A stretch of DNA of 64,000 nucleotides from an uncultured Chloroflexia bacterium (GCA_963801445.1 CAWDEW010000013.1:117866-181865), one strand, 5' to 3'. Numbered from the stretch's first letter, positions 2,502 through 59,485 are shown. Notes: a model not told the origin generated them from the letters alone. Numbers and translations: made by a program.

Positions 2502-2506
2502 GCGAG

Positions 2507-5393: not shown

Positions 5394-5403
5394 CGGGAGC
5401 CCC

Positions 5404-10204: not shown

Positions 10205-10256
10205 CCGGACCTCGGGCGCGCGAGACGCCGCGGCGCTGCGGCCGCATCATGGGGCC

Positions 10257-10976: not shown

Positions 10977-10988
10977 GGCGAGACCCGC

Positions 10989-13877
10989 ATGCCGCTGGAC
11001 CGGTACCGCACACGGCGTGACTTCACGCGGACACCCGAGCCGGCGCCGGGGACCGTGGGGTCGTCCCCCGGACCGGGCGCCCCGGATCCGACCGCTCCAG
11101 GGGGCTGCGGTCGCTTCGTCGTGCACATGCACCGGGCCCGTCGCCTGCACTGGGACCTGCGCCTGGAGATCGACGGAGTCCTGGCCTCGTGGGCCATCCC
11201 GAAGGGCCCCACCCTGGACCCGGAGGAACGGCGCTTCGCGGCACGCACCGAGGACCACCCGATCGAGTACCTCGACTTCGAGGGCGTCATCCCGGCGGGC
11301 GAGTACGGGGCCGGCGACTCGATCTGCTGGGATTGGGGCACCTTCGAGCCGGAGCTCTCCTGGGATCCCGGGCAAGCGGTGCGCGACGGGGAGCTGAAGA
11401 TGCGCCTGCGCGGCGAGAAGCTGCGCGGGAGGTTCACCCTCGTGCGCACGGCCGGACGCGGCGGGGACGGAAGGGCGACGGGCGACGGGCGATCGCGCCG
11501 CTCACGGACGGACGCGGGCGGAGCGGAGGACGCGGGATCCGGCGAGGGCTGGCTGCTGATCGCCAAGCGCGACCCGGACTCGGTGGCCGGCTGGGACGCC
11601 GGCGACCACCCGGCGTCCGTGCGATCCGGCCTGACCAGCGCCGAGGTCGCCGCCGGCATGTCGCCGCGGTTCGTGCGCCCGGCCCCGGCGCCGCTGCCCT
11701 CGCTGGATGCCCCGGGCAGCCTGCGGGGCGTCCAGCCGACCACCCTGGCCCCGATGCTCGCGACGCCCGGCACGGCCCCGTTCGACGACGAGTCGTGGCT
11801 CTTCGAGCCCAAGTGGGACGGCTATCGCGCGCTCGCGATCGTGGCCGGGGGCAAGGTCCGCCTCGTGACCCGCAACGGCAACGATGCCGGTCGCTACTTC
11901 CCGGAGCTGCTCGGCCCGCCGGCCTGGCTGATGGCGCCCGACGCGATCGTGGATGGCGAGGTCGTGGCGTTCGACGAGGCGGGCCGCCCCGACTTCTCGC
12001 TCCTGCAGGCCCGGGTGGGCGGCGGATTCGGGCGCAGCGATCCGGGGCCCAGGCCGGAGGCCCGCGCGGCTGGCCAGGCGGCGCCGCTCCTGTTCATGGC
12101 CTTCGACCTGCCCTGGTGCGCCGGCCGATCGCTCGCGGGCGTGGCCCTCGAGGAGCGCAAGGCGATCCTGCGCCTGGTCCTGCGGGAGCATCCGCGCGTC
12201 CGCTACGGCGGGCACGTGGAGCGGGACGGCGTGGCGTTCTTCCGGGCGGCCGCCGAGCGCGGGCTGGAAGGCGCGATGGCGAAGCACCGGGCAAGCCGCT
12301 ACGAGCCGGGCCGCCGGTCTCCGGCCTGGCTCAAGCTGAAGGTCCGCCCCACCCAGGAGCTGGTCGTGGCGGGCCACGTCCCCGGGCAGGGCTCGCACCG
12401 CGACCTCGGGGCCCTCCTGGTGGGCCTGTTCGATGGTGGCACCCTGCGCTCCGTCGGCCGTGTCGGGAGCGGGATCGATGGGCCGATGCGAGCCCGGCTC
12501 CGGCGTGACCTGGATGCGCTCGCCCGCCCGACCATGTCGTTCGCGGCCCCAACCGCCGACCTGGCGGAGCTGGCCCGCACGCCGGAGGTCACCTGGGTCG
12601 ACCCGGTGCTGGTGATCCGCGCCGAGATCGGAGGCTGGACCCTGGACGGCAACATCCGCCAGGCCTCGTTCGTGGAGCTCGCCCGCGACGTGGACCCGGC
12701 CGCGGTCGAGCGCCAGGATGCCGTGGGTCCGGCAGCCGCCCAACGGGCCCTCGCGAAGTCCGGCCTCGGCTCGGGTCCCACCCGGGCCCCGGCAGTGCCC
12801 GGCCTGGCCTCGCGCCGAGGTGCGTCGCGCGAGTCGGTCGCGCCGGCCTCGGACCCGACTGCGCCGGCGGCGGTCGCGACGACGCTCCCACCTGCCCCGG
12901 TCGTGGCGGCGCCGGCCGTCGTCCTGACGGCCTCGGCCGCGGAGCTCGCGGCCCTCGAGGCGCTCCCGGCAGGCGGCGGGACCTGGAACCTTGCCGGGCG
13001 CGAGATTCGCCTCACGAACCTGGGCCGGGTCCTCGCGCCGGGCTCGGCGCCGGACGACCCACCGATCACGAAACGGGAGCTCATCCGATACCTGGTGGAG
13101 GCCGCGCCGCTCCTCCTCCCGCACCTTTCCGGCCGGGCCCTCAACCTGGCCCGCTACCCGGAGGGGATCGCCGGCGAATTGTTCTGGCAGAAGGACGTGC
13201 CGAAGGGGACGCCCGACTGGGTCGCCCGGTGGCGGGAGCCCGACCCGCCGGACCGCCGGGCGCACTCGTACGTGCTCGCGGACGAGGTCGCGGCGCTCGG
13301 CTGGCTCGGCAACCAGGCCGCCGTGGAGATCCACCCCTGGACGTCCCGGATCGAGGCGCCCGCCGAACCGCGCTGGGCCCTGATCGACATCGATCCGGGG
13401 ACGGCCACGACCTGGGACGAGGTGCTCGTGCTGGCCCGACTCTTCAGGCGCGCCCTGGAGCACCTGGGCGTCACCGGCGTCCCGAAGACGAGCGGCAAGC
13501 GGGGCCTCCAGGTCTTCATCCCGATCGGCCCCGGCTCGACGTTCGAGGCAACCCGGGGCTGGATCGAATTGCTCTCGCGGGCGGTCGGTGGAGCCGTCCC
13601 GGACCTCGTGAGCTGGGAGTGGGCGAAGGAGCGGCGGGGCGGCCGGGCGCGCCTCGACTTCACCCAGAACTGGCGGAACCGGACCCTGGTCGCCGCCTAC
13701 TCGCCGCGCCCGGCGCCCGGGCTGCCGGTCTCGGCGCCGATCACCTGGGCCGAGCTGGACGATCCGGAGCTGCGTCCCGACCGCTGGACGATCCGGACGA
13801 TCCTGGCCCGCGTCGGGGCCCGCGGCGACCTCTTTGCCGCCGCGCTCGGCCCGGACCAGGCCCTCCCGCCGCTCTGA
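10989..13877 (+). CDS. ligD: Multifunctional NHEJ DNA ligase LigD (phosphoesterase, ATP-dependent ligase, polymerase/primase domains)
   Basis: N-terminal phosphoesterase (RRDFTRTPEP, HMHRARRLHWDLRLE). Ligase motif I FEPKWDGYRA with motifs III, IV and V. C-terminal polymerase domain (LDFTQNW). Confidence 0.9.
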   Translation: MPLDRYRTRRDFTRTPEPAPGTVGSSPGPGAPDPTAPGGCGRFVVHMHRARRLHWDLRLEIDGVLASWAIPKGPTLDPEERRFAARTEDHPIEYLDFEGVIPAGEYGAGDSICWDWGTFEPELSWDPGQAVRDGELKMRLRGEKLRGRFTLVRTAGRGGDGRATGDGRSRRSRTDAGGAEDAGSGEGWLLIAKRDPDSVAGWDAGDHPASVRSGLTSAEVAAGMSPRFVRPAPAPLPSLDAPGSLRGVQPTTLAPMLATPGTAPFDDESWLFEPKWDGYRALAIVAGGKVRLVTRNGNDAGRYFPELLGPPAWLMAPDAIVDGEVVAFDEAGRPDFSLLQARVGGGFGRSDPGPRPEARAAGQAAPLLFMAFDLPWCAGRSLAGVALEERKAILRLVLREHPRVRYGGHVERDGVAFFRAAAERGLEGAMAKHRASRYEPGRRSPAWLKLKVRPTQELVVAGHVPGQGSHRDLGALLVGLFDGGTLRSVGRVGSGIDGPMRARLRRDLDALARPTMSFAAPTADLAELARTPEVTWVDPVLVIRAEIGGWTLDGNIRQASFVELARDVDPAAVERQDAVGPAAAQRALAKSGLGSGPTRAPAVPGLASRRGASRESVAPASDPTAPAAVATTLPPAPVVAAPAVVLTASAAELAALEALPAGGGTWNLAGREIRLTNLGRVLAPGSAPDDPPITKRELIRYLVEAAPLLLPHLSGRALNLARYPEGIAGELFWQKDVPKGTPDWVARWREPDPPDRRAHSYVLADEVAALGWLGNQAAVEIHPWTSRIEAPAEPRWALIDIDPGTATTWDEVLVLARLFRRALEHLGVTGVPKTSGKRGLQVFIPIGPGSTFEATRGWIELLSRAVGGAVPDLVSWEWAKERRGGRARLDFTQNWRNRTLVAAYSPRPAPGLPVSAPITWAELDDPELRPDRWTIRTILARVGARGDLFAAALGPDQALPPL

Positions 13878-16517: not shown

Positions 16518-16718
16518 CCCGGTCCGGGCCGGCGCCGGCTGCCGCCGGTTCGCGAGGGGCACCGGGCGAGCGCTCCCGAAGTGCCGCGAATGGCGCCGCT
16601 CGGTGCCCGGTTCGACCCGCCCCTGCCGGCCGGCCCGCACGGGTGGCCCGGGGGGGCCCGCCCGGGGATGCCCGACGGCACTTGCTGCCTGGTGGGGTGC
16701 CCGGCGGAGACTGGGCAC

Positions 16719-17201
16719 ATGAACGAGACTGCCGCACTCATCGCAGCGTTGAACACGTCGTGGTTTGCGTCCGGTCTGAGCGAGAAGTCGCAGGCGCGCC
16801 TCGCGGAGCTCGGGCGGCGCTTCACCGCCGAGCCCGGGACGGAGCTCTTCAGGGAGGGTGAGCCCAGCGAGACCTTCGGCATCCTGGTCCACGGCCGCGT
16901 CGCGCTGCGGACCCTCGTCCCTGAGCGCGGCGACATCACGATCCTCACGGTCGAGCCGGGCGACGTCTACAGCTGGTCGGCGCTCGTCCCGCCGTACAAG
17001 GCCTCGTCCACCGGGACCGCGATCGAGCCAATCGAATCGATCGTCTTCGACGGCAACGCCCTGCGGGCGGCCCTCCGCGAGGATTGCGACCTGGCCAGGT
17101 CGCTCTACCCCCGCATCCTCGTCGCGGTCTCGCGGCGCCTCAACGCGACCCGGGTCCAGCTCCTTGACCTGTTCGCGGCCGAGCAGGTACGCGCGTGGTG
17201 A
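16719..17201 (+). CDS. Standalone cyclic-nucleotide-binding (CAP effector) domain protein
   Basis: A cNMP-binding beta-barrel (FREGEPSETFGILVHGRVAL...EPGDVYSWSAL) with no HTH or output domain. Its 3' end overlaps the start of the hydrogenase beta-gamma gene. Confidence 0.7.
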   Translation: MNETAALIAALNTSWFASGLSEKSQARLAELGRRFTAEPGTELFREGEPSETFGILVHGRVALRTLVPERGDITILTVEPGDVYSWSALVPPYKASSTGTAIEPIESIVFDGNALRAALREDCDLARSLYPRILVAVSRRLNATRVQLLDLFAAEQVRAW

Positions 17202-19186
17202 CGATGCGCTCCCAGGGGCGGGGCCAGCGTCCCGCCCTGGAAGGCCCCGGATACCTCGACCGTGCCGATCTCCAGGCTCTCTTCGACCTCCTTCGCGAGG
17301 ATGGCCGGCGACTCGTCGGCCCCACCATGGCCGATGGTTCGATCGTCTACGACGAGATCGCCTCGGTGGACGACCTTCCGCGCGGCTTCGGGGACGAGCA
17401 GGCGCCCGGCCGCTACCGGGTGCGCCGTCGCGGCGATGAGCGCCTCTTCGGCTTCGTGGTCGGCCCGACCGCGTGGAAGCGCTGGACATTTCCGCCGCTG
17501 GTGCAGCTGACCCATGCCACCCGCGACGGCCACCGCGTCTCCTTCGAGCCTGACGCGGCGGGGGTCCCGCTGCTCGCGTTCCTCGGCGTCCGCGCCTGCG
17601 ATCTCGCGGCGATCGGCGTCCAGGACCAGGTCTTCACCGGGGCGACCTTCGTCGACCCGGACTACCAGGCGCGCCGGGCGCGGGTCCTGGTGGTGGCCAC
17701 CCAGTGCATGACCGCCGCGTCGACCTGCTTCTGCACTTCGATGGGCACGGGCCCCGAGGTGACCTCCGGCTACGACATCCTGCTCACCGAGCTCGACAGC
17801 GGGTTCCTGGTCGAGGCGGATTCCGCCCCCGGCCGCGCGCTGCTCGAGCGGCTCCCGATCCGGCCGGCAACGGCCGTCGAACAGTACGGGGCGGCCGCCG
17901 CGGTCGCGGCGGTGCGCGCGAGGATCGGCGACCCGGTCCCGGCGGCAGGTCTCCACGACCGCCTCATGGCCCAGCTTGACCACCCGCGCTGGGCGCAGGT
18001 GGCCGAGCGCTGCATCACCTGCGGCAACTGCACGCTCGCCTGCCCGACCTGCTTCTGCACGACCCTCGGCCAGGCGACGGACCTCACCGGGGAGCGCGCG
18101 ACGACGACGCGAATCTGGGACAGCTGCTTCAGCCCCGGCTTCGCGAAGGTCGCCGGCGGCAGCTTCCGGGCCCGCCCGCGCGATCGCTACCGGCAATGGC
18201 TCACCCACAAGTTCGGCACCTGGTGGGACCAGTTCGGGCAATCCGGGTGCGTGGGCTGCGGCCGCTGCATCACCTGGTGCCCCGTCGGGATCGACGTTCG
18301 CGAGGAGCTCAACGCGATCGCCCCGTCCGTCCCGCTGTCCCCGGAGACGCCGCTGGTCCAACCGGTGGCCGCGACCCCGAACGACTTCGTGACCGCCCGC
18401 GTCGTGGCTACCAAGGCCGAGACGGTGGACACGACGACGCTGACCCTGACCGGCGTGGATCCCGCGTTCAGCAAGGGAAGCACCGGCCAGTTCGCGATGG
18501 TCTCCCTGCCCGGGTTCCCACCGCTCCCGATCTCGATCAGCCGGTTCCTCCCCGACGGCATCGAGCTGACCATCCGCGGTGCCGGACCCGCGACGCGCGC
18601 GATGTGCGCGCTCCAGGTCGGCGATCAGCTGGGCCTGCGCGGCCCGCTGGGCAACAACTGGCCGCTCGATCGGGCCGTCGGCCGCGACCTCGTGATCGTG
18701 ACCGGCGGGATCGGCCTCGCCCCGCTGCGCCCCGTCCTCCAGGCGATCGTGGCCGACCGTCGCCGGTTCGGCGACGTGATGCTGTTCTACGGCGCGCGGA
18801 CGCCCGGCGATCTGCTCTACCGGGACGAGCTGGAACGCTGGGCCAGCCGCCATGGAATTGAGGTGAGCCTGACGGTCGACCGCGCGGGGCCGGAATGGAC
18901 GGGCCGGGTCGGCATCGTGACCCACCTCTTCGACCAGGCCGCCTGGGACGGGACCAACATGATCGCGTTCGTGTGCGGCCCCGAGCGGATGATGCAGGCG
19001 ACGGCGACCACGCTGGCCGGCCGGGGCGTCCCGGCAACCCGGATCCACGTGACCCTGGAGCGCCACATGGAGTGCGGGATCGGGCTCTGCGGCCACTGCC
19101 AGATGGGCAAGTACTTCGTCTGTCGGGACGGGCCGGTCTTCTCGATCGCCCAGCTCGGCGACACCTTCGGCCGGGAGGGGATCTGA
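17195..19186 (+). CDS. Group 3b [NiFe] hydrogenase beta-gamma fusion: N-terminal 4Fe-4S subunit and C-terminal FAD/NAD(P)-binding subunit with a 2Fe-2S site
   Basis: The N-terminal half has CITCGNCTLACPTCFC and CVGCGRCITWCP (HydB/AsrA-like). The C-terminal half has a ferredoxin-NADP reductase fold (LVIVTGGIGLAPL) ending CGIGLCGHCQ (HydG/AsrB-like). Confidence 0.85.
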   Translation: MVTMRSQGRGQRPALEGPGYLDRADLQALFDLLREDGRRLVGPTMADGSIVYDEIASVDDLPRGFGDEQAPGRYRVRRRGDERLFGFVVGPTAWKRWTFPPLVQLTHATRDGHRVSFEPDAAGVPLLAFLGVRACDLAAIGVQDQVFTGATFVDPDYQARRARVLVVATQCMTAASTCFCTSMGTGPEVTSGYDILLTELDSGFLVEADSAPGRALLERLPIRPATAVEQYGAAAAVAAVRARIGDPVPAAGLHDRLMAQLDHPRWAQVAERCITCGNCTLACPTCFCTTLGQATDLTGERATTTRIWDSCFSPGFAKVAGGSFRARPRDRYRQWLTHKFGTWWDQFGQSGCVGCGRCITWCPVGIDVREELNAIAPSVPLSPETPLVQPVAATPNDFVTARVVATKAETVDTTTLTLTGVDPAFSKGSTGQFAMVSLPGFPPLPISISRFLPDGIELTIRGAGPATRAMCALQVGDQLGLRGPLGNNWPLDRAVGRDLVIVTGGIGLAPLRPVLQAIVADRRRFGDVMLFYGARTPGDLLYRDELERWASRHGIEVSLTVDRAGPEWTGRVGIVTHLFDQAAWDGTNMIAFVCGPERMMQATATTLAGRGVPATRIHVTLERHMECGIGLCGHCQMGKYFVCRDGPVFSIAQLGDTFGREGI

Positions 19187-20034
19187 TGCCGCACACTCCC
19201 GTCGCCGCCCGCCCGCGCGTCGGCGTCGTCAAGTTCGCCTCGTGTGACGGCTGCCAGCTCACCCTGCTCGACCTCGAGGACGAGCTGCTCTCGATCGTCG
19301 AGCACTTCGAGATCGTGGACTTCCCGGAGGCGACCTCGGCCCGCTCCGCGGGCCCGTACGACGTCCTCTTCGTCGAAGGGTCCATCAGCGAGCCGGCCCA
19401 TCTCGAACGGATCGCCGAGCTTCGCCGGCGCACCCGCTTCCTCGTGACGATCGGCGCCTGCGCGACCGCCGGCGGCATCCAGGCGCTCCGCAACTGGGGC
19501 GACCACGATGCGTTCCGGAGCAGCGTGTACGCCCAGCCCGAGCAGATCGAGTCGCTGGCCCGCTCGACGCCGATCGCGGAGCACGTCGCGGTTGACGCGG
19601 AGCTGCGCGGCTGCCCGATCGACCCGGGCCAGCTCGTCGAGCTGCTCACCGCCCTCACCACCGGCCGCCGCCCGCAGCTCCGCGACGAGGCCGTGTGCAT
19701 GGAGTGCAAGCGGCGCGGCGTCGTGTGCGTGATGGTCGGCAAGGGGATCCCCTGCCTCGGCCAGGTGACCCAGACGGGCTGTGGCGCGATCTGCCCGCGC
19801 TATGGTCGCGGCTGCTACGGGTGCTTCGGCCCCCGCGAGCAGGCCAACGCCGCGGGCCTGGCCCGGCACCTCCAGATGGCCGGCGACCGGCCACGTGACG
19901 AGGTCGGGCGGCTCTTCGCCGGGTTCACGGCCTACGCGGAGCCGTTCCGGAGCATGGTCACCGAGCTCGGCGGCGCCCGGTCCGGGCGGCCCGAGACCGC
20001 GGCCGAGCCGGGCCCGCAGGGAGGCAAGGCATGA
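19186..20034 (+). CDS. Group 3b [NiFe] hydrogenase small (delta) subunit
   Basis: VVKFASCDGCQL...FVEGS...GACATAGG small-subunit motifs and a distal cluster (CMECKRRGVVCV...CLGQVTQTGCGAICP). TGATG overlap with the upstream gene. Confidence 0.85.
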   Translation: MPHTPVAARPRVGVVKFASCDGCQLTLLDLEDELLSIVEHFEIVDFPEATSARSAGPYDVLFVEGSISEPAHLERIAELRRRTRFLVTIGACATAGGIQALRNWGDHDAFRSSVYAQPEQIESLARSTPIAEHVAVDAELRGCPIDPGQLVELLTALTTGRRPQLRDEAVCMECKRRGVVCVMVGKGIPCLGQVTQTGCGAICPRYGRGCYGCFGPREQANAAGLARHLQMAGDRPRDEVGRLFAGFTAYAEPFRSMVTELGGARSGRPETAAEPGPQGGKA

Positions 20035-21353
20035 GCCACGGGACCGCGCACCACGAGGCGGACGAGCGGCTCTACGAGGTCGGAGAGCTGACCCGGGTGG
20101 AGGGCGAAGGATCGCTCCGCCTGCGGGTCCGCGACGGCGAGGTCATCGAGGCCCGCCTCGGGATCTTCGAGACCCCGCGCTACTTCGAGGCCCTCGTCGT
20201 CGGACGCACACCCGACGAGGCGATCGACATCGTCGCCCGCATCTGCGGGATCTGTCCGGTCGCCTACCAGATGAGCGCGGTCCACGGGTTCGAGGACCTC
20301 TTCGGCGTCCGGATCGACCCGTCGGTGCGCGCGCTCCGGCGACTCTTCTATTGCGGCGAGTGGATCGAGAGCCACGCCCTGCACATCTACTTCCTGCACG
20401 CGCCGGACTTCCTGGGCTATGAGAGCGCGATCGCGATGGCGGCCGACCACCGGCCCGCCGTCGAGGCGGCCCTGCGGATGAAGAAGGTCGGCAACCAGGT
20501 CGTCCGCGTCCTGGGCGGACGCCCGATCCACCCGGTCTCCGTGCGGGTCGGCGGCTGGTCCCACGTCCCGCGCCGGGCGGAGCTCGAGGCGCTGGTCCCG
20601 GACCTCGAGGCCGGCCTGGCGATCGCCCGCGAGACGATGAGCTTCGTGACCGGCCTGACGATGCCCGTCTTCGAGCGCGAGCCGCGCCTGGTCAGCCTCC
20701 GCCACGCCGCCGAGTATCCCTTCAACGACGGGCGGATCGTGAGCAGCGACGGCCTGGACCTGGCGCCCGGCGCGTGGCGCGATGCCTTCGAGGAGTTCCA
20801 GGTGGAGGGAAGCCACGCGCTCCATGCCCGCTCCCGGGACGGGAAGGGCGTCTATCTCGTGGGCCCCGCGGCCCGCGTGACGATGGCCGCGGAGCAGCTC
20901 CACCCGCTGGCCCGGGAGGCCCTGGCGGCGTCCGGCTACGCGCAGGCGATCCGCACGAACATCTACGCCTCGATCGTGGCCCGGGCGGTCGAGCTGGTCC
21001 ATGCCTTCGCCGAGGCGCTGGACCTGGTCGCCGCCTACCGGCCGCCCTCCGAGCCGCTCGTCGCCTGGAAGAGCCGCCCGGGCGTGGCCGCGTGGGCGAC
21101 GGAGGCGCCCCGCGGGCTGCTGTTCCACCGCTACGAGGTGGACGAGGCCGGTCGGATCAAGGCCGCCCAGATCGTGCCCCCGACCAGCCAGAACCAGGCC
21201 GCCATCGAACGTGACCTCGCGGTCGCGGCGAAGGGCGTCCTGGACCTGCCCCACGCCCAGGCGACCCACCGCCTGGAGCAGATGATCCGGAGCTACGACC
21301 CGTGCATCAGCTGCGCGACCCACTTCCTCGATCTCCGGGTCGAGCAAGCCTGA
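20031..21353 (+). CDS. Group 3b [NiFe] hydrogenase large (alpha) subunit
   Basis: RICGICPVAY N-terminal and DPCISCATH C-terminal Ni-Fe motifs. ATGA overlap with the small subunit. Confidence 0.9.
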   Translation: MSHGTAHHEADERLYEVGELTRVEGEGSLRLRVRDGEVIEARLGIFETPRYFEALVVGRTPDEAIDIVARICGICPVAYQMSAVHGFEDLFGVRIDPSVRALRRLFYCGEWIESHALHIYFLHAPDFLGYESAIAMAADHRPAVEAALRMKKVGNQVVRVLGGRPIHPVSVRVGGWSHVPRRAELEALVPDLEAGLAIARETMSFVTGLTMPVFEREPRLVSLRHAAEYPFNDGRIVSSDGLDLAPGAWRDAFEEFQVEGSHALHARSRDGKGVYLVGPAARVTMAAEQLHPLAREALAASGYAQAIRTNIYASIVARAVELVHAFAEALDLVAAYRPPSEPLVAWKSRPGVAAWATEAPRGLLFHRYEVDEAGRIKAAQIVPPTSQNQAAIERDLAVAAKGVLDLPHAQATHRLEQMIRSYDPCISCATHFLDLRVEQA

Positions 21354-21382
21354 CCGCGGCCACCGGGCCCGGGCCGTCGATC

Positions 21383-21868
21383 GTGGCGCGCGTCCCGGTC
21401 TTCGTGTGCGGCGAGCCGGCCCGCGGCGACGACGCCGCCGCGCTCGCCGCGATCGCCCTGTTGCCCGCGTCCGTCCGCGAGCTCGCGGACATCGTGGAAG
21501 CCGGCCAGCTGGACCTGCTCCTCCTGATGGACCTGCCCGCCGGAGCGCCCTGCGTCGTGGTTGATGCCGTGGCCGGCATCAGGCCGGGCGAGATCTGGGT
21601 GCGCCCGCTGGCCCGGCTCGCGGACCTGCCCCGGATGCGGGCCCAGGGCGGCCCGGCGCCTGAGCCGCGATCCTCGCACGAGCTGCCCCTCGACCACGTC
21701 CTGGCCCTGGCGGCGACGCTGCGCGATGGACCACCCGAGGGAACGTTCATCGGGATCGGCGGTGCCTGCTTCGACGTCGGCACGTCCCTCACGCCGGCCG
21801 TTCAGGCGGCCCTGCCGACCCTCGGCGCGACCATCGCCGCCGAGGTGGAGCGGCTCGCCGGCCGCTGA
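21383..21868 (+). CDS. Hydrogenase maturation endopeptidase (second copy, for the group 3b enzyme)
   Basis: VFVCGEPARGDDAAA matches the HycI/HybD-like N-terminus. GTG start just after the large-subunit stop. Confidence 0.65.
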   Translation: MARVPVFVCGEPARGDDAAALAAIALLPASVRELADIVEAGQLDLLLLMDLPAGAPCVVVDAVAGIRPGEIWVRPLARLADLPRMRAQGGPAPEPRSSHELPLDHVLALAATLRDGPPEGTFIGIGGACFDVGTSLTPAVQAALPTLGATIAAEVERLAGR

Positions 21869-47394: not shown

Positions 47395-48543
47395 GTGGAG
47401 ATGCACGTCATCGTGGTCGGCGGGGGGATCGTCGGGACCGCGGCGGCCGCGTTCCTCGCGCAGGCGGGCGCGCGAGTCACGCTCGTCGAGCGCGAAGGCC
47501 TCGCCTCGGGTGCTTCCGGCGCCAACTCCGGCGTGGTCCAGCATCCGTTCGACCCGGTCCTGGCCGCGCTCTACCGAGCGACGGTGACCTGCTACCGCGA
47601 CCTGTCGGCAGCCGACGCGGGGTTCCGCCTGGCCGCGGAGCCGAACGGCATGCTGTACGTCTCGGCCGACGGCGCGGCGGTGACCCGCCTGGCGGACTCG
47701 CTCGGCCGGTCGTTCCCTGACCTGGCCGTGGAGGTGGTGGACGGCCCCGCCATCGAGCGGCTGGAGCCGTCGCTGGCTGGAGGTCTCGTTGCCTGCCGAG
47801 TGGGGATCGGCTTTCCGGTCCAGCCGGGCGCGTCGACGTACGCCTACGCCACGCTGGCCGAACGGCACGGGGCCACCGTCCGCCTGGGGCGCGAGGCTGC
47901 GCTGGCGCGCGCGGGCATGACGATCACCGGCGTGATCATCGACGGCACGCGCCTGCAAGCCGACGCGGTGCTCGTGGCCGCGGGACCATGGACCTCCGGG
48001 CTGCTCGATCCTGCCGGTCGTTGGGCAGCGATCAGGCCGCGCTGGGGCGTTGTCGTTGAGACGGACCTCCCGCGCGCGCCGCACCACGTCCTCGAGGAGG
48101 CGGAGATCGACGCGGCGATCGGCGTGCCCGCCCCACCGGCCGATGACGCGCCCGGCGAGGGCGCCGATCCCGCGCCCGACCTGGTGCAGTTCAGCCTCGT
48201 CCCCACCCCCGGCGTGGCGGCCGTCGGATCCACGTTCCTCGCGGAGCAGCCCGACGCGGCCGCGTGGGTCGAGCCGATCCTCCTGACCGCAGCCCGGTTC
48301 GTGCCCGGCCTGGCCGAAGCCCCGATCCGCGGAGTCCGGTCGTGCGCCCGCCCCCAGAGCAGCGACGGGCGACCGCTGGTCGGCCGGGTCCCGGGTCGCG
48401 ACGGCCTCTTCGTGTGCGCCGGCCACGGCCCGTGGGGGATCTCCACGGGGCCCGCCTCGGCGCGCCTGGTGGCGGATCTCATCCTGGGCCGGGAACCGGA
48501 GATCCCCGCGGGCCTCGACCCGGGGCGCTTCGGAAGGCCCTGA
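47395..48543 (+). CDS. FAD-dependent oxidoreductase (DAO family; glycine/D-amino-acid oxidase-like)
   Basis: VIVVGGGIVGTAAAAFLAQAG matches the GxGxxG FAD motif, with a DAO-type C-terminus. Confidence 0.8.
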   Translation: MEMHVIVVGGGIVGTAAAAFLAQAGARVTLVEREGLASGASGANSGVVQHPFDPVLAALYRATVTCYRDLSAADAGFRLAAEPNGMLYVSADGAAVTRLADSLGRSFPDLAVEVVDGPAIERLEPSLAGGLVACRVGIGFPVQPGASTYAYATLAERHGATVRLGREAALARAGMTITGVIIDGTRLQADAVLVAAGPWTSGLLDPAGRWAAIRPRWGVVVETDLPRAPHHVLEEAEIDAAIGVPAPPADDAPGEGADPAPDLVQFSLVPTPGVAAVGSTFLAEQPDAAAWVEPILLTAARFVPGLAEAPIRGVRSCARPQSSDGRPLVGRVPGRDGLFVCAGHGPWGISTGPASARLVADLILGREPEIPAGLDPGRFGRP

Positions 48544-48572
48544 GGTCGGCTGTGCCAGTTCAGCGGTCGGGC

Positions 48573-48612
48573 CGACCCTATTCGGCCTGGGCTGACCCTA
48601 TTCGGCCTGGGC
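48573..48612. repeat. 20-bp tandem duplication c(c/t)gaccctattcggcctggg, two copies, abutting the stop of the Fur-like fragment
   Basis: Perfect duplication apart from one C/T difference, in the 55-nt gap between the convergent DAO gene and the Fur-like fragment. Confidence 0.7.
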
Positions 48613-48849
48613 CGACCCCGGGGAGAGGCAGCCCGCGCAGCGTCCGGCGATCCTGAGGTAGACCGTCGAGGGAGTCGTCCCGGGATCCCGCTCGCGGCAG
48701 CGCTCCACGACCGCGTTCACGGTCACGTGCCCAGTCGTCGCGGTAAGGACGTCGAGGATGAGGCGACGCTGGGGCGTTGAGCGCAGGCCACGCGAGCGGA
48801 GCGCAGCACGGGCGCCATCCAGGGTTGGGAGATCGGAGGAAGGCGTCAT
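48598..48849 (-). CDS. Fur-family regulator fragment: N-terminal DNA-binding domain only (84 aa); possibly a truncated gene remnant
   Basis: LRSRGLRSTPQRRLILDVLTATTGHVTVNAVVERCRERDPGTTPSTVY matches the Fur winged helix up to the TVYR motif. The ORF then ends with no metal-binding or dimerisation domain. TGATG-coupled to the upstream ATPase. Confidence 0.55.
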   Translation of the reverse strand: MTPSSDLPTLDGARAALRSRGLRSTPQRRLILDVLTATTGHVTVNAVVERCRERDPGTTPSTVYLRIAGRCAGCLSPGSAQAE

Positions 48850-49676
48850 CAGTCCGGCCCGTGGTGCTCGGCGTCGTGGTCGTGCGCGTGGACCCCTCCG
48901 TCGTGCTCGTGGAGATGCTCGTGGATCAGGTTCGCCCGGATGAGCAGGTCGCGATCGCCCAGGATCTCCGCGCTGGGGCCATCGGCAAGCACGCGCCGGT
49001 TTTCCCCGAGGACGACGGCGCGTTCCGCGATGACCGGCACGATCTCGAGCTCGTGGGTCGCGGTGACGAGCGTCGTGCCGCCCTCGCCGAGGCGCCGGAT
49101 GAGGTTGACGAGGACCCATTTCGTGCGCGGATCAAGCGCTGCTGTCGGCTCATCGAGCAGCAGGACGTCGGGCCGCAGGGAGAGCACGGACGCGATCGCG
49201 GCGCGCTTCTTCTCGCCGCCCGAAAGCTCGAACGGGGCCCGATCCGCGAGATGCCGGATCTCCATCTGGTGGAGCGCCTCGTCGACGCAGCTCCGGATCT
49301 CCTCCTTCGCCATGCCCAGCTGGAGCGGGCCGAAGGCGACGTCGTCCGAAACGGTGGCGCTGAAGAGCTGGATGTCCGGGTCCTGGAAGACGAGGCCGAC
49401 CTCGCGGTGGAACCGGAATGCGTCGAGGCCGTCCGCCACGGCCGCGATGTCCCGTCCCAGGGCGCGCATCGTGCCGCCGCTGGGGGCCACGATCCCGTCG
49501 AGCAGCTTGAGCAGCGTGGACTTTCCGGAGCCGTTCGCCCCGAGGAGCGCGACCCGCTCGCCGCGCTCGATCCGCAGGTCGATCCCGTCGAGCGCCACCT
49601 GGCGCCCACCGTACACGTACCGGATGCCGTGCAGGTCGAAGACGGGCTCGGCAACCGGCGGCGCGGGCTCGATCAC
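48849..49676 (-). CDS. ECF-type Ni/Co transporter ATPase (CbiO/NikO) with a His-rich C-terminal tail
   Basis: Walker A GANGSGKST, signature LSGGEKKRAAIASVL and Walker B LLLDEPTAALD. The tail is EHLHEHDGGVHAHDHDAEHHGPD. GTGA overlap with the T-component gene. Confidence 0.8.
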   Translation of the reverse strand: MIEPAPPVAEPVFDLHGIRYVYGGRQVALDGIDLRIERGERVALLGANGSGKSTLLKLLDGIVAPSGGTMRALGRDIAAVADGLDAFRFHREVGLVFQDPDIQLFSATVSDDVAFGPLQLGMAKEEIRSCVDEALHQMEIRHLADRAPFELSGGEKKRAAIASVLSLRPDVLLLDEPTAALDPRTKWVLVNLIRRLGEGGTTLVTATHELEIVPVIAERAVVLGENRRVLADGPSAEILGDRDLLIRANLIHEHLHEHDGGVHAHDHDAEHHGPD

Positions 49677-50539
49677 GGGAGGGCCCTTGCGGCGACGATC
49701 ACCGCGGCCGCAACGGCCACCGACCCGGCCAGGCCGGCCCAATCCGAGGCGCGCATCCGGTACTCCTGGAACGTCCGGATCGATCCGCTGAAGCCGCGCG
49801 CGACCATGGCGGCGTAGACGTCGTTGCTCATCTTCACCGACCGGTTCAGGAGGTTGCCCATGGAGCCGCCGATCCAGCGCCGCTGCTCCCCACCGCTCGT
49901 GCGCGCGACCGTCCGGCTCTTGCGCGCCTCGAACATGCCGTTGGCGAGGTGCAGGAACAGGAAGATGTAGCGGTAGGTCATCGCCAGCACCAGGATGAAG
50001 AGTTGGGGCACGCGGATCGCCTGCAGGCTCTTGAGCAGGTCCGCCCACGGCGTGGTCATGACCAGCAGGACGGCCAGCGAGACGCTGACGCCCACGCGAG
50101 CCACGAACAGGACGGCGCCTTCGAGGCCGGGGATCGAGGGCGCGACGTGGAGCGGCCCGAGGGCCAGGTCGAAGAGGCGCGCGCCCGGCACGAGGAAGAT
50201 CGCCGGGATGACCACGATGCCCGCGAAGAACGGGATCCCGAGCCAGACGCGGCGGACGAAGAAGTCGAACGGGATCCGACTGGCCGCGGCGGCGCCGAGG
50301 ACGACCGCGTAGAGGGCCACCTCGACGAGGAACGAGCCCGAGAGGCTCGCCGCGAGGACCAGCGCCAGGAACATGCCCAGCTTCGCGCGGGGGTCCGCGG
50401 CCTGGAGCCAGCCCTTCGCCCGGGCATGCTCCTCGGTGAAGACCGCCCGCTCGATCGACGCGCTGATCCCCGCCACCGTGTGCTCGAGCCAGCCGGCCCG
50501 CTCCGTGCGGCCGCTCCCCGCGCCGTGTCCGCCGGCCAT
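49673..50539 (-). CDS. ECF transporter transmembrane (T) component CbiQ/NikQ
   Basis: CbiQ family with multiple TM helices and the conserved ARGF motif (AMVARGFSGS). TGATG overlap with the upstream gene. Confidence 0.8.
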   Translation of the reverse strand: MAGGHGAGSGRTERAGWLEHTVAGISASIERAVFTEEHARAKGWLQAADPRAKLGMFLALVLAASLSGSFLVEVALYAVVLGAAAASRIPFDFFVRRVWLGIPFFAGIVVIPAIFLVPGARLFDLALGPLHVAPSIPGLEGAVLFVARVGVSVSLAVLLVMTTPWADLLKSLQAIRVPQLFILVLAMTYRYIFLFLHLANGMFEARKSRTVARTSGGEQRRWIGGSMGNLLNRSVKMSNDVYAAMVARGFSGSIRTFQEYRMRASDWAGLAGSVAVAAAVIVAARALP

Positions 50540-51831
50540 CAGCTCGTCACCGGTCCGACCCGGGCCGCGTCGTCTTCGGCAGATCGGCCCCTCCCGAGCA
50601 TGCGGGCGATGAGGTACACCAGCAGCCCGAGCAGCAGCATCCCGATGGTGCCCGCGATCTCGTAGCCGATCGCCACCTGCCAGAGGGCCGCGTTCGCGTC
50701 GCCGAAGAACGGGAGCGGGATGGAGTACCCGGCGAACGGGGCGCTGAAGATCGTCGAGAGCCCGCGGAGCCCCTCGGGGATGTAGCCGAAGGCGGCCTGG
50801 ACGTCCGCGGTGGATCCCTCGCCGTAGGCGAACCCGGGCGCGATCAGACCGAGCGGCGCGATCACGGCCGCCGCAACGAACGCCGTCCCGACGCCTCGGA
50901 CGCGGCGGGGCAGGAGCAGCCGCGCCAGCGGGATCAGCACGGCCGCGATGACCACGACGACAAGGAGCATCGTGGCCACGCTGGGCCAGTCGACCGCCGT
51001 CCAGTCCGTGTCGAACGCGTGCGCCAGGTTGCCGCCGCCGGTGATCAGACCCGCCGCCACCAGGATCCCGACCGAGACGGCGACCAGTGCGCCGCCCGTC
51101 TGCCAGAGCGGCCTGCGCGAGCGCTCCCCTTCCTCGACGTCGCTGCCAGCGAAGAAGCGACGCAAGGACGTGAGGTACTCCGGGTGGCGCTTCTGGAGGT
51201 AGGCGACCCCGAAGGCGGTCACCAGACCTTCGACGATCGAGGCCCCGAACACGTGGGCGATCAGCATCGCCGGTACCGCGACGGAGAGGTCGTACGGGCT
51301 GTAGAGCGCGTGGCCGTTCTCCGTGAACAGGAGGGGCTGGATCCCCAGCTCGATCCCGACCGCGAGCGCGCAGACGGTGATCCCGAGGTAGGCCCCGATG
51401 CCCGCGGCCCAGACGCGACGAACCGACAGGATGGGCGCGCGTCCGGCAAGGAGCCGGTAGGTGGCGTACCCGACGAAGGGCAGGATGAACGCCATGTTCA
51501 GGCAGTTCGCGAAGATCGCCAGGACGCCGCCGTCGCCGAAGAAGAGGGCCTGGATGATCAGGGCGACGCTGACGGCGATCGCCGCCGCCCACGGTCCGAG
51601 GACGATCGCGGCGAGGGTCCCGCCGACGGCGTGGGCGGTCGTGGCGCCGGGCACGGGGATGTTGAACATCATGATCGTGAAGCTGAGGGCGGAGAAGATC
51701 GCAAGCAGCGGGATCGTCCGGTTCGACAGGACCTTCTGGACGCGGTCCGTGGCGATCGCCCACCCGGGAACCGTTGCGACGCCCAGGCCGACCGAGATGA
51801 TCGGACTCAGGTAGCCGTCGGGGATGTGCAC
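50539..51831 (-). CDS. ECF substrate-capture component CbiM/NikM with a fused C-terminal PDGLE-like (CbiN/NikN-type) membrane domain
   Basis: A GTG start preceded by AGGAGG gives an fMet-HIPDGYLSP N-terminus. A CbiM core of ~230 aa is followed by an extra 2-TM domain containing GYIPEGL. Confidence 0.8.
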   Translation of the reverse strand: MHIPDGYLSPIISVGLGVATVPGWAIATDRVQKVLSNRTIPLLAIFSALSFTIMMFNIPVPGATTAHAVGGTLAAIVLGPWAAAIAVSVALIIQALFFGDGGVLAIFANCLNMAFILPFVGYATYRLLAGRAPILSVRRVWAAGIGAYLGITVCALAVGIELGIQPLLFTENGHALYSPYDLSVAVPAMLIAHVFGASIVEGLVTAFGVAYLQKRHPEYLTSLRRFFAGSDVEEGERSRRPLWQTGGALVAVSVGILVAAGLITGGGNLAHAFDTDWTAVDWPSVATMLLVVVVIAAVLIPLARLLLPRRVRGVGTAFVAAAVIAPLGLIAPGFAYGEGSTADVQAAFGYIPEGLRGLSTIFSAPFAGYSIPLPFFGDANAALWQVAIGYEIAGTIGMLLLGLLVYLIARMLGRGRSAEDDAARVGPVTS

Positions 51832-51990
51832 GTCCGCCTCCTGCAGTGCCGCCCCCGATGCGCTTTCCCCGCCGCGACCCGGGCTGGGCCCCATCCGCCC
51901 AGTTCGCGGACGGCTGGCCAGCGGATGCACTGACCGCTTATTACAACGTCATGCAAGAGCCATTATAGTCGAATGGCGAATGGGCGCCTC
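51832..51990 (-). promoter_or_regulatory. AT-enriched leader/promoter of the Ni/Co ECF operon with a TATAAT -10-like hexamer and a TCTTGCA half-palindrome
   Basis: The minus strand reads ccattcgccattcgacTATAATggcTCTTGCAtgacgTTGTAATaagcgg about 115 nt upstream of the GTG start. This is the only AT-rich stretch in the area. Confidence 0.3.
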
Positions 51991-52120: not shown

Positions 52121-53122
52121 ATGCGGCTGCCATCGCGCCAGCCCCGTGCGGCCACTGCCGCTGCGCTGCTCGGCCTTGTCGCCGTCGTCGCGCTCGCCTG
52201 CGGGTCGTCGGGGCCCGGATCGCCCGGGCCGGGCTCGTCCGCGCGATCCGCCCCACCGGTCGGATCGACCGGTGGGGCCGGGGCAGCGGGGTTGGCCACC
52301 TTCGCCGAGGGTGGTCTCGCGTTCGAGTACCCGGCTGGCTGGCGGGTCTTCCACCACCAGGAGCTCTCCACGGCCTCCAGCCTGATCGCCGAGCTTTCGA
52401 CGGTCGACGTCCCGGAGCCATGCTCCACGACCCCCGTCCAGGGTGGCGGCACGCAGGTCAGCTGCTCCGCACGGTACCGGCTCCAGCCGGACACCCTGGT
52501 GGTCAGGGTGAGCGCGAATGGCTGGCCCTCGTTCAACATCCTGGACCCCTTGCCGGCGGCGGCCCGGCCGCTCGTCGTCGGCGGCCTGCCGGCCTACGTC
52601 GAGGTCGGGCTCCCCGTCGACCCCGCAACCGGCGCCGACACGGTCGTCACCTGGACGCTCGCGCGGCCCGGCTCGGTCGACAACTACTACACGATCAGCG
52701 CAGCGCTGCGCGGGCCCGACATCGCGACGATGCGCGCCCAGCTCGACGCGCTCGTCGCGAGCCTCCGCTTCGACCCGCCGGCCACCCTGCTGCCTGCCGG
52801 CCAGGAGGCCGCCGCGACGGCGGCCGGGCACGCCCTGGCGATCCTCGCCAGCGGCGATCCATCGTGGCGCTGCTTCCCGACCCGGCCCGGGACGGCGGCG
52901 CTGACCGTGACCGCCCTGCCCATGGGCCCGGCGCTCAGCGCTGCGCAGGTCGCGACCTGCACGATGGCGGTCGAGGCCACGCCGCTCCAGCTCTGGAAGA
53001 TGACCCTGACCATGGCCCTGCAACACGCGGACGCGAACGCCGGTCCAGGCCAGCGGTTCACGGTCTGGGTCGGGCCCGACGGGACCCCGGGCGAGACGAG
53101 CGGCGGGCCGCTGGCCCCGTAG
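52121..53122 (+). CDS. Lipoprotein of unknown function
   Basis: GAGGAGG ribosome-binding site. Signal plus lipobox LLGLVAVVALACGSSG. Confidence 0.6.
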   Translation: MRLPSRQPRAATAAALLGLVAVVALACGSSGPGSPGPGSSARSAPPVGSTGGAGAAGLATFAEGGLAFEYPAGWRVFHHQELSTASSLIAELSTVDVPEPCSTTPVQGGGTQVSCSARYRLQPDTLVVRVSANGWPSFNILDPLPAAARPLVVGGLPAYVEVGLPVDPATGADTVVTWTLARPGSVDNYYTISAALRGPDIATMRAQLDALVASLRFDPPATLLPAGQEAAATAAGHALAILASGDPSWRCFPTRPGTAALTVTALPMGPALSAAQVATCTMAVEATPLQLWKMTLTMALQHADANAGPGQRFTVWVGPDGTPGETSGGPLAP

Positions 53123-56776: not shown

Positions 56777-56949
56777 CGCCCGTCGCCCTGTCGGGCGCCG
56801 GGGGGACCGCAGAGTCGTCCGGCAGGGGGCGTCACGGTCGGTCGCGCCGGGTCGGCCGCGGCCCGACCGCGCGGGCATCCGCCCCGAGCGGGCGCCGGCC
56901 TGCCCGTTCCATGCCCCCGCGGCCCCCGTGACCGCCTACGATCCGCGTC

Positions 56950-58203
56950 ATGGGTCAGGTTGGCGCGGTCCAGGCCGTCGAGATCCTCGTCACGCTGCTG
57001 GGCGTGGCGATGGTCGTCGCGATCGCGGTCCGCCGGCTCCACCTCCCGTACAGCGTGGCCCTGGTCCTGGTCGGGTTCGCGGTGGCCGCGATCGTCTCCG
57101 CGCTCCGGCCGGGCGAGCGGCTCACGATCGGGCCGGACCTCGTGCTCATCGTGCTCCTGCCTGGCCTCGTCTTCGAGGCCGGGTACCGGCTGGACCTCGC
57201 CCACCTGCGGCGGACCCTGGCCGGCCTGCTGCTGCTCGCCGCCCCGGGCGTCTTCATCTCGGCCGGGATCGTGGGCGTCACGCTGCACCTCGTCGTGGGG
57301 ATGCCGCTCGACCTTGCCTTCGTGGTCGGGGCGATGGTCTCGGCGACGGACCCGGTGGCCGTGATCGCGACGTTCCGCGAGCTGCGCACGCCGGCTGCCG
57401 TCGCGACGCTCGTCGAGGGCGAGAGCCTCGCGAACGACGGCACCGGGCTGGTCGTCTTCGCGCTGGCCCTCAAGGCGGTCGGCACCCCCGTCGCCCCGAC
57501 CGAAGTCGCCGTCTCATTCGTCGCGATCGTCGTCGCGTCGCTCGCGATCGGCGCGGCAGCCGGCTGGATCGCGAGCCGTTTCATGGGCCTCACCGACGAC
57601 CACCTCGTGGAGCTGACGGTCTCGGTGGTCCTGGCCTACGGGACGTATCTCGTCGCCGACCAGGTCCACGCCTCGGGCGTGATCGCGACGGTGACGGCCG
57701 CCATCGTGCTCGGCAACTACGGTCGGCCCCGGACGATGTCGGAGACCGGCAGCGGCGCCCTGGACACGGTCTGGGAGTTCCTGGCCTTCGTCATGACGGC
57801 GGTCGTATTCCTGCTGATCGGATTCGCCGTCCAGCCGGCCCAGCTCGCGGGGTCGATCGGGCCGATCGCCGTCGCGATCGTCGCCGTCATGGCGGCGCGG
57901 GCCGTCGTGGTCTACGGCCTGCTCGGCATCCCATCCCGGCTCATCGCCCCGCGCGCCTCCGGGATGCCGCCGGGGTGGCTCCATGTCCTCTTCTGGGCAG
58001 GGCTCCGGGGGGCCGTGTCGGTCGCGATGGCCCTGGCTCTCCCGGAGGACCTGCCCCAGCGGGCGACGCTCCAGGAGATCACCTTCGGGGTCGTCGTCTT
58101 CACCCTGTTCGTCCAGGGGACCACCGCGCGCGCGGTGGTGTCGCGGGCCCTGGGCACCTCCGGCGCGGGCTCTGCGGGCTCGGGCGGCAGCCCGGCCAGC
58201 TGA
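56950..58203 (+). CDS. Na+/H+ antiporter, CPA1 (NhaP-type)
   Basis: 12-TM protein with the CPA1 ESLANDG motif region (VEGESLANDGTGLVVF). Confidence 0.8.
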   Translation: MGQVGAVQAVEILVTLLGVAMVVAIAVRRLHLPYSVALVLVGFAVAAIVSALRPGERLTIGPDLVLIVLLPGLVFEAGYRLDLAHLRRTLAGLLLLAAPGVFISAGIVGVTLHLVVGMPLDLAFVVGAMVSATDPVAVIATFRELRTPAAVATLVEGESLANDGTGLVVFALALKAVGTPVAPTEVAVSFVAIVVASLAIGAAAGWIASRFMGLTDDHLVELTVSVVLAYGTYLVADQVHASGVIATVTAAIVLGNYGRPRTMSETGSGALDTVWEFLAFVMTAVVFLLIGFAVQPAQLAGSIGPIAVAIVAVMAARAVVVYGLLGIPSRLIAPRASGMPPGWLHVLFWAGLRGAVSVAMALALPEDLPQRATLQEITFGVVVFTLFVQGTTARAVVSRALGTSGAGSAGSGGSPAS

Positions 58204-58372
58204 CCCCCCCGCGGGTTGCGACCGGGGGCCGGCCGCCTTGCCGGCGGATGCTACGATCCGTCCCGAACCCGAGCCAGCCCCTCGTACGGGGTCCGTCCGC
58301 GCCGTCACGCCAGCACGTGGCGGCCGTGATGCAGGGACCCGCGATGATCCGGCCGGGAGCAGGAGCGAACGC

Positions 58373-59485
<1,113 letters not shown>

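Follow-up and report, generated by a model that had tools for sequence, protein, structure and literature searches.

A putative nickel importer operon in an uncultured Chloroflexia bacterium with an internally deleted nur-like gene as its last cistron

A 64,000-nt stretch of DNA from an uncultured Chloroflexia bacterium (hereafter the window) carries an operon for a putative metal importer of the energy-coupling factor (ECF) type, all elements of which lie on the minus strand. Its order is nikM, nikQ, nikO and, as the last cistron, a short open reading frame (ORF) of the Fur family. We consider it likely that this is a Ni2+ importer operon, in a soil Chloroflexota genome of the Limnocylindria type, whose nur gene lost its core through an in-frame deletion and is now decaying, and that the operon has probably escaped its original nickel feedback. 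The evidence comes from the comparison of the last cistron with full-length genes at related loci, from its rate of substitution and from the operator in front of nikM.

The last cistron carries an internal in-frame deletion

The comparison set consisted of 80 related nik loci, collected by a scan with one genome per species, with a NikM identity of 65-80%. Nearly all of them come from metagenome-assembled genomes (MAGs) of Chloroflexota (Limnocylindria/'Chloroflexia') and from Ktedonobacteria. The relatives nearest by NikO are L083 and L085 (86% identity); the NikM and NikO of the window are themselves singletons in a collection of 15 billion proteins.

An earlier note, made from the DNA of the window, had described the fourth cistron as a TGATG-coupled gene of the Fur/Nur family which encodes 84 residues, consists of the winged helix only, ends just after the TVY motif and lacks the metal-sensing domain. 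The family, the coupling and the missing sensing domain agree with our analysis, whereas the length and the kind of shortening do not. The ORF encodes 83 residues and matched the Pfam FUR profile with 29.2 bits, at profile positions 2-47 of 121 only. The two closest proteins in the database are full-length Fur proteins of 146 residues, 72-76% identical over the N-terminal part, and the closest homologs as a group are full-length proteins of 146-156 residues. When aligned to the 146-residue homologs, the remnant was found to contain the N-terminal helices through TVY and then, within 19 further residues, the eight native residues IAGRCAGC, the counterpart of the extreme C-terminus I-V-G-R-C-A-x-C of the full-length proteins, with a variable tail. 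The gene was not truncated at its 3' end: about 70 codons are missing from its interior, most of helix 4 and the wing are gone, and the native C-terminus with its CxxC motif is kept.

Related loci show what the gene looked like when complete. A tblastn search of all loci found a full-length copy (aligned residues ~1-145) at ~62 of 80, either as the last cistron after nikO or as a divergent gene ~155 bp upstream of nikM, and among the ~62 nik-linked homologs a match ending at residue 65 was seen in the window only. L083 and L085 have a 156-residue gene that overlaps the nikO stop, the same arrangement as that of the window remnant, and in L001 a 146-residue homolog begins 12 bp past a nikO whose product has the same His-rich tail as the NikO of the window.

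Codon comparison with L083 located the deletion junction (Table 1). The upstream side of L083 reads GTC TAC/CGG ACG and its downstream side GGC CAC/CTG ACG ATC GCC GGC CGG TGC, while the window reads GTC TAC/CTC AGG ATC GCC GGA CGC TGC (slashes mark the breakpoint). In all, 70 codons (R66-H135 of L083) were lost in frame, or 210 bp, with a 3-nt AC/C microhomology. Besides this single deletion the codons indicate one change beside the junction, from Thr to Arg, which would be later. The deletion begins directly after the equivalent of Tyr56 of Nur and removed the equivalent of Arg57, the rest of helix 4, the wing with its HxH motif, the M-site, the first CxxC, the dimer interface and the equivalent of His126. 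Without most of helix 4, the wing and the dimerisation domain, the product does not have the complete Fur fold of winged helix plus dimerisation domain. Likewise it has neither the nickel-specific site nor the M-site of Nur, all residues of which except the His33 equivalent (in GHVT) lay in the deleted segment.

Within the window tblastn gave a single match and no intact Fur paralog. No exact record of the 83-residue product was found, an exact search of metagenome contigs with the 30-nt junction gave 0 matches, and a protein-guided metagenome scan with the remnant gave no confirmed relative. A frameshift hiding the rest of the Fur protein was considered and rejected: the other two frames past TVY hold nothing Fur-like, and there are 54 bp from the stop to the convergent gene. 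One related locus has an apparent lesion of another kind: the nik-linked nur of L019 (~5442-5845) is present as two overlapping pieces in different frames; this apparent frameshift is either a real lesion or a sequencing error.

The earlier note had also seen a perfect 20-bp tandem duplication abutting the stop and had named it as the possible truncating lesion. The repeat comprises two perfect 19-bp copies with a differing 20th base, lies in the region of the 54-bp convergent spacer and extends over the stop and the final codons of the remnant rather than abutting the stop; the 19-mer is found nowhere else in the window. On the coding strand, the stop codon is already reached in the first copy. 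A version of the ORF with no duplication would have the same end, and the duplication therefore did not cause the shortening. The repeat has no significant fold (z = -1.4), and a role as terminator hairpin was rejected.

Probable decay of the remnant and alternative explanations

The remnant has changed faster than its relatives. In a relative-rate test (binomial p) over the 61 retained aligned sites, the window remnant had 13 lineage-specific changes and L083 had 0 (p = 2e-4); against four other comparators the counts were 14 vs 2, 13 vs 2, 10 vs 2 and 13 vs 4. The genes used as controls gave no excess for the window, with 13 vs 16 changes in NikO, 20 vs 27 in NikQ and 37 vs 41 in NikM, so the acceleration is specific to the remnant. 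The idea that the lineage of the window is a mere outgroup with inflated counts was rejected for the same reason. Two of 24 strongly conserved remnant positions are changed, among them Trp24, which is invariant in 62 of 62 relatives and is Ser here. At low confidence, AlphaFold (AF2) modelled the remnant as three helices and a 4-residue stub of recognition helix 4, with a tail that is disordered from residue 64 onwards.

Judged by these substitutions, the remnant is most likely a non-functional pseudogene under relaxed constraint which is still translationally coupled. The earlier note had left a choice between a decayed nur-like gene and a naturally truncated mini-Fur. The former is favoured by the full-length relatives, the loss of 70 codons and the 13 vs 0 changes; the latter is disfavoured for this gene by the accelerated substitution and the cut recognition helix. 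Expression of the nik operon would now be either constitutive or under an unlinked regulator.

Several points weigh against this interpretation. The deletion allele is known from one assembly only, and the AF2 model is of low confidence (mean pLDDT 60, from a 3-sequence alignment). An intact unlinked nur may exist elsewhere in the genome, of which 64 kb are visible. The in-frame deletion, the intact start-stop coupling and the kept last CxxC may indicate a residual or new function, and the fast evolution of the remnant could reflect neofunctionalisation. Repression in the clade and the role of the operator are deduced by analogy with Nur of Streptomyces coelicolor, and the role of the His-rich tail of NikO is deduced in a like manner. 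The clade operator has the form 6-4-6 and not the 6-5-6 of Nur, and good operators are often retained at related loci that have no linked nur.

An exhaustive HMMER search with the 83-residue query listed mostly Fur proteins of normal length, together with several complete proteins of 97-131 residues with internal deletions, which keep TVYRTLxxLxE and GFxxDxxHxxIxGxCxxC. The short forms that were placed on contigs (L088 and L089/L090, Table 1) adjoin nik genes in both cases and belong to other Chloroflexota-like lineages. L089 and L090 differ at 25 of 99 codons, the ratio of nonsynonymous to synonymous rates (dN/dS) being 0.22 at a dS of 0.28 (Fisher p = 1e-4), and the replacements fall mostly in the termini; by this codon comparison their short form seems to be under purifying selection. 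Together with the perfect operator of L090, such internally deleted forms beside nik lend some support to the proposal that the 83-residue product of the window is itself a working 'mini-Nur', a shortened DNA- or metal-binding protein which modulates nik or has a new role. The exactly in-frame deletion and the retention of the TGATG coupling and of the C-terminal CxxC fit this proposal as well, and a protein of this kind might form dimers in which two CxxC motifs make up an intermolecular Cys4 site. We nevertheless regard it as unlikely, because in the proteins of L088-L090 the recognition helix TVYRTLxxLxE is complete and the GFxxDxxH strand is present, whereas the window product is cut after Tyr64 and lacks the Arg57 equivalent and most of helix 4 (PMC2691836). 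In addition, the closest relatives of the window copy are all full-length, its invariant Trp is changed amid the excess of lineage-specific substitutions, the low-confidence AF2 model ends in a stub helix and a disordered tail, and the remnant is a singleton with no second allele for a selection test. Equally doubtful is the wider proposal that nik-linked Nur in Limnocylindria-like Chloroflexota repeatedly yields forms of 83-100 residues, in which the helix-turn-helix and the last CxxC are kept and the wing, the sensing sites and the dimer interface are lost, and that these make up a minimal Fur class with the window product as an extreme working member. If it were true, the short forms would be an undescribed minimal class of the Fur family, dimerising for example via a metal shared by two CxxC motifs. 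The genes of L088-L090 keep the idea of a 'mini-Fur' class alive without rescuing the window gene.

A further reading, that the organism really has a full-length nur as last cistron and that the deletion arose in assembly or sequencing or belongs to a minority allele, is very improbable. Judging by its relatives, the sequence evidently comes from a MAG, the deletion was seen once, and the nur of at least one related MAG (L019) has an apparent frameshift, all of which speak for this reading. However, assembly collapse requires a repeat and the junction shares 3 nt only, and the neighbouring genes are undamaged and show no unusual rate of evolution. An artefact would not create extra substitutions, and it cannot explain the 13 extra amino-acid changes, that of the invariant Trp among them, or the change in the operator described below.

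Nur-like ancestry of the lost gene and the predicted operator of the operon

By sequence similarity the lost gene was Nur-like. Among solved structures the full-length homolog is nearest to S. coelicolor Nur (3EYY, 88.6 bits), followed by Zur (59.8 bits). The nickel-site residues His70, His72 and His126 and the M-site residues His33, His88 and His90 of Nur are aligned with histidines in the homolog, while His86 is not, and the patterns HxH, H..G.C..C and H.H..C..C are all present in 58/64 full-length copies. Nickel-loaded S. coelicolor Nur binds the nikM promoter and recognises tTGCaa-N5-ttGCAA, its DNA contacts on helix 4 being Tyr56, Arg57 and Asp37 (PMC2691836).

We searched the 64-kb window and 952 kb of related loci for TTGCAA-N4-TTGCAA with at most 2 mismatches. 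The window has a sole match (0.05 expected), TTGCATGACGTTGTAA, which lies 5 nt after TATAAT. The earlier note had singled out the leader as the only AT-rich patch nearby, with TATAAT and a TCTTGCA half-site reminiscent of a Nur box. Both motifs are present and the GC content falls there to 0.59, the lowest in the region; TCTTGCA, however, is the left half of a full predicted operator with two half-sites and not a single half-site. In 65/80 related loci the operator motif likewise occurs no more than 220 nt ahead of nikM, and 67/75 of the sites in the related loci fall in nikM-upstream segments, which make up 1.8% of that sequence. An N4 spacer was seen in 65 loci and an N5 spacer in 6, so that the clade consensus has one base fewer than the published Nur box. 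In relatives the operator follows a -10-like hexamer, TATACT or TAGACT/TAGAAT, in the same layout as in the window. The right half-site of the window has T in place of a C conserved in 98% of sites; although it concerns one base only, this change is consistent with a regulator-operator pair in decay.

By analogy with S. coelicolor, the operator is probably recognised by the Nur-type repressor of the clade. Where nur is divergent, the site stands between it and nikM, and where nur is part of the operon it is co-transcribed; either layout would therefore lead to autoregulation. No good -35 element was found in the leader of the window. The leader has no significant fold (z = -1.8) and no Rfam family at E <= 1 in a scan that covered positions 40000-64000, and a riboswitch or structured leader was rejected accordingly.

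A Nur-like gene was also seen in L002 (2-865), a soil contig, where it overlaps the stop of a different membrane protein with a His-rich N-terminal region (HGHDHGHGG...). This protein may be another type of nickel/cobalt permease, which would suggest that the Nur-like regulator accompanies more than one kind of nickel transporter.

Transporter components and metal specificity

The order nikM-nikQ-nikO-Fur with overlapping stop and start codons, as given by the earlier note, agrees with the coordinates and with the junctions. The four cistrons are tightly coupled, by TGATG between nikM and nikQ, GTGA between nikQ and nikO and TGATG between nikO and the Fur-like ORF. The start of nikM is the GTG at 51831, giving a product that begins with fMet-HIPDGYLSP, and GGAGG is located 5 nt upstream of it. 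NikM matched PF01891 CbiM with 186.6 bits over residues 2-218; NikQ matched PF02361 CbiQ with 106.9 bits and TIGR02454 with 147.4 bits (cutoff 111.8), and NikO matched PF00005 ABC_tran with 110.4 bits and TIGR01166 cbiO with 210.4 bits (Pfam and NCBIfam). Walker A (GANGSGKST), signature (LSGGEKKR) and Walker B (LLLDEP) motifs are readable in NikO, and its solved relatives are CbiO proteins (5X3X, 3GFO). In place of the PDGLE-like domain said to be fused to NikM there is a C-terminal extension of 210 residues with an IPEGL motif, whose match to PDGLE is weak (17.1 bits vs cutoff 27, E = 0.005). In relatives PDGLE is encoded separately or matches the fused gene weakly. The locus of the window appears to be an ordinary Nik(MN)QO operon (group I ECF), and its variant features, the Nur-like 6-4-6 operator and the nine-His tail of the ATPase, are common to the clade.

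NikM is far nearer to the solved nickel S component TtNikM2 of Thermoanaerobacter tengcongensis (4M58, 4M5B; 233 bits) than to the solved cobalt protein RcCbiM of Rhodobacter capsulatus (5X3X; 48.8 bits). Its alignment with TtNikM2 is ungapped over residues 1-127, and M1, H2, H67, Q94, G101, G102 and N109 are identical; in the TtNikM2 structure Met1, His2 and His67 are nickel ligands, and Gln94, Gly101/102 and Asn109 are supporting residues (PMC3945884). No cobalamin or NiCo riboswitch was found in the Rfam scan of 40000-64000, the only match there being malK-III. Two NiFe hydrogenase large subunits (5278-6825 and 19899-21353), which the earlier note had also recognised, and HypA (7354-7731) are encoded in the window. 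Nickel is the likely substrate because NikM resembles TtNikM2, a B12 riboswitch is absent and hydrogenases are nearby; the Nur-like regulator and the box in the clade point the same way. On this indirect sequence evidence nickel is probably the physiological substrate, in line with the Ni specificity proposed before, and the check on cobalt that had been asked of the locus (clustering with CbiM, a B12 riboswitch upstream) came out in favour of nickel.

A cobalt system of the CbiMNQO type, or a dual Ni/Co system, in place of a nickel importer is quite unlikely. All parts are named Cbi* by Pfam and NCBIfam, PRK11909 'cobalt transporter CbiM' scored 293.5 against a cutoff of 225, and Co2+ also binds the NikM site (4M5C, PMC3945884). 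These points are outweighed by the 233 vs 49 bits of NikM, the absence of a cobalamin riboswitch at E <= 1, the hydrogenases with HypA, and a linked regulator in the clade that has the nickel-site histidines of Nur and a TTGCAA-type box. Taking nickel as the substrate, the importer may still transport some Co2+ besides Ni2+.

A peptide deformylase gene was found immediately downstream of nikO on the same strand in 11 of ~80 loci, namely L004 (9102-9641; PF01327, 137 bits), L076, L051, L022, L054, L067, L020, L018, L027, L030 and L064. In some of the 11 it lies between nikO and nur; the window operon has none. A deformylase in a nik operon is suggestive because Met1 of NikM binds nickel through its free amine.

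The His-rich tail of NikO

The earlier note had quoted a 23-residue tail of NikO with 9 His as an unusual feature. The 23 residues hold 8 His; 9 are reached only from NLIH onwards, over 27 residues (Table 1). Nor is the tail peculiar to this NikO. Its pattern NLIHEHLHEHGxxxHxHxHDxxxHH is conserved among NikO orthologs, with at least 7 His in the 32 residues after NLIH in 70/80 and exactly 9 in 59/80, while the Ktedonobacteria orthologs have 2-4. The solved CbiO structures contain no native equivalent, the His run in 3GFO looking like a purification tag, and no description of His-rich NikO tails was found in the searchable literature. A homology search with the tail alone returned 15 short fragments only, and a search with full-length NikO listed only relatives of at least 80% identity. 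From its conservation the tail is taken to be a cytoplasmic module of the clade, whose spread is known within Chloroflexota. Most plausibly it would bind Ni2+.

Features and neighbouring genes of the window

The coordinates of the operon features and of the short Nur forms are given in Table 1.

Table 1. Features of the nik operon in the window and short Nur forms at other loci (positions of the latter refer to the locus named).
Feature	Position	Strand	Remarks
nik(MN): S component NikM (residues 1-220) with C-terminal membrane extension resembling NikN/PDGLE	50539..51831	-	430 aa; Pfam CbiM
nikQ: T (energy-coupling transmembrane) component	49673..50539	-	288 aa; Pfam CbiQ, TIGR02454
nikO: ATP-binding cassette (ABC) ATPase, A component	48849..49676	-	275 aa; Pfam ABC_tran, TIGR01166 cbiO
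NikO C-terminal His-rich tail NLIHEHLHEHDGGVHAHDHDAEHHGPD	48852..48932	-	9 His in 27 aa; conserved in orthologs
Nur-like (Fur-family) regulator remnant	48598..48849	-	83 aa; Pfam FUR partial
Deletion junction TAC/CTC (Tyr64/Leu65)	48655..48660	-	breakpoint between 48658 and 48657; codon comparison with L083
Tandem repeat, period 20, 2.5 copies	48569..48618		Tandem Repeats Finder score 93; over last codons and stop of remnant
Leader, ~125 nt	51832..51961	-	GGAGG at 51841-51837; no Rfam family at E <= 1
Nur-box-like operator TTGCAT-GACG-TTGTAA (6-4-6)	51941..51956	-	predicted, motif match
Candidate -10 hexamer TATAAT	51962..51967	-	5 nt upstream of operator; direct reading
L088 mini-Nur, Candidatus Aquidulcis frankliniae	925-1227		100 aa; divergent from CbiM-PDGLE gene; 1-mismatch operator in 91-bp spacer
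L089 mini-Nur	686-985		99 aa; near cbiM-PDGLE-cbiQ
L090 mini-Nur	883-1182		99 aa; near cbiM-PDGLE-cbiQ; perfect TTGCAA-CCTC-TTGCAA upstream of own start

The first hydrogenase cluster (1995-6825) is of the HoxEFU..H type, an NAD-linked [NiFe] hydrogenase with HoxE/F/U-like diaphorase genes and the NiFe large subunit, and is followed by HypA to 7731. The second cluster (16518-21868) encodes a regulator that binds cyclic nucleoside monophosphate, an FeS/NAD-binding subunit, a small subunit, the NiFe large subunit and a HycI-like protease; the hydrogenase genes proper together with the protease span 17168-21868. The immediate neighbours of the nik operon have no relation to nickel. They are a convergent oxidoreductase gene of the DAO family (47395-48543), a divergent gene (52121-53122) and a LigB dioxygenase gene. 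The protein of 52121-53122 has no Pfam match, and its N-terminus looks like a lipoprotein signal.

Two further features of the window were observed. A malK-III RNA motif (RF03009) at 58270-58375 on the plus strand was matched with 70.9 bits (gathering score 50; E = 1.9e-14) and directly follows a Na+/H+ exchanger gene (56932-58203). At 9044-13877, Ku (PF02735) is encoded beside a full multidomain LigD with phosphoesterase, ligase and primase-polymerase, which is a bacterial module for non-homologous end joining.

Proposed course of events and significance

By homology, NikM would bind Ni2+ through the free amine of Met1, through His2 and through His67, and NikQ would couple NikM to a dimer of the ATPase NikO. 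The nine-His tail may bind incoming Ni2+ in the cytoplasm, for hand-off to chaperones or for feedback on the ATPase, and the importer would supply nickel to the two [NiFe] hydrogenases nearby. Ancestral control in the clade was presumably exerted by a Nur-type repressor of the Fur family, encoded by the co-transcribed last cistron or by a divergent upstream gene. Loaded with nickel, this repressor would bind the TTGCAA-N4-TTGCAA palindrome at or just downstream of the -10 element, block transcription and regulate its own synthesis. In the lineage of the window a single in-frame deletion of 210 bp in nur then took away both metal-sensing sites, the first CxxC and the dimer interface, along with the wing and the greater part of the recognition helix. 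It joined three and a bit N-terminal helices to the last CxxC, and later substitutions followed at otherwise invariant positions.

For annotation, the remnant should be flagged as a pseudogene and not as a small Fur protein. The predicted consequence is nickel-independent expression of the importer, which bears on the nickel supply of hydrogenases in soil Limnocylindria. The interest of the window locus is modest and that of the clade somewhat higher. The clade, which lies outside Actinomycetota, appears to have a nickel regulon of the Nur-like kind with a clearly defined 6-4-6 operator; this bears on the published idea that the nickel site of Nur dictates a wide half-site spacing. The conserved nine-His tail of the ECF ATPase might accept nickel in the cytoplasm or act as a feedback sensor on the importer. 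Other leads at the level of the clade are the short Nur derivatives, which are apparently selected, and the deformylase genes in nik operons, which fit the need of NikM for a free Met1 amine.

Comparison with known systems

Like the Nik(MN)QO of Rhodobacter capsulatus and the NikM2 of T. tengcongensis (4M58, 4M5B), the transporter of the window belongs to the group-I ECF metal transporters and is built from M, Q and O components. Its NikM shares with them the N-terminus M-H-I-P-(D/E)-G and the ligand His67. R. capsulatus has a natural NikM-NikN fusion, and the M protein of the window likewise has an apparent extra membrane module fused to it, which differs in matching Pfam PDGLE weakly (17 bits). 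The solved CbiO proteins are without the nine-His tail that NikO of the window and of the clade keeps.

The ATPases of the ABC importers MetN and ModC have regulatory C-terminal domains that act by trans-inhibition, and the nickel chaperones HypB, SlyD and UreE have His-rich tails. By analogy, the putative role of the NikO tail would be that of a substrate-binding appendage on a cytoplasmic ATPase, as in MetN and ModC, or that of a His-rich nickel-binding tail on a nickel-handling protein, as in HypB, SlyD and UreE. Unlike the folded domains of MetN and ModC, the NikO tail is a short and probably disordered peptide.

Like S. coelicolor Nur, the regulator of the clade is a Fur-family repressor, to judge from its relatives, and is genetically tied to an ECF nickel importer (nikMNOQ belongs to the Nur regulon). 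The full-length proteins of the clade keep the equivalents of His70, His72 and His126 and of His33, His88 and His90, and the TTGCAA half-sites, which overlap the promoter, are as in the Nur box. The clade differs from S. coelicolor in a half-site spacing of 4 bp (6-4-6; extended consensus CTATTGCAA-N4-TTGCAATAG) in place of 5 bp, in the lack of a conserved His86 equivalent, and in the physical linkage of the regulator to nik, as last cistron or divergent neighbour. It also belongs to Chloroflexota and not to Actinomycetota, and the gene of the window is a deletion remnant without any sensing or dimerisation element.

The remnant itself resembles bacterial pseudogenes that arose by microhomology-mediated in-frame deletion, with which it shares a single clean junction, a 3-nt microhomology, the loss of the defining domains and a raised substitution rate. 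It differs from them in that it is in frame and keeps its native stop region and its translational coupling, so that the product may still be made.

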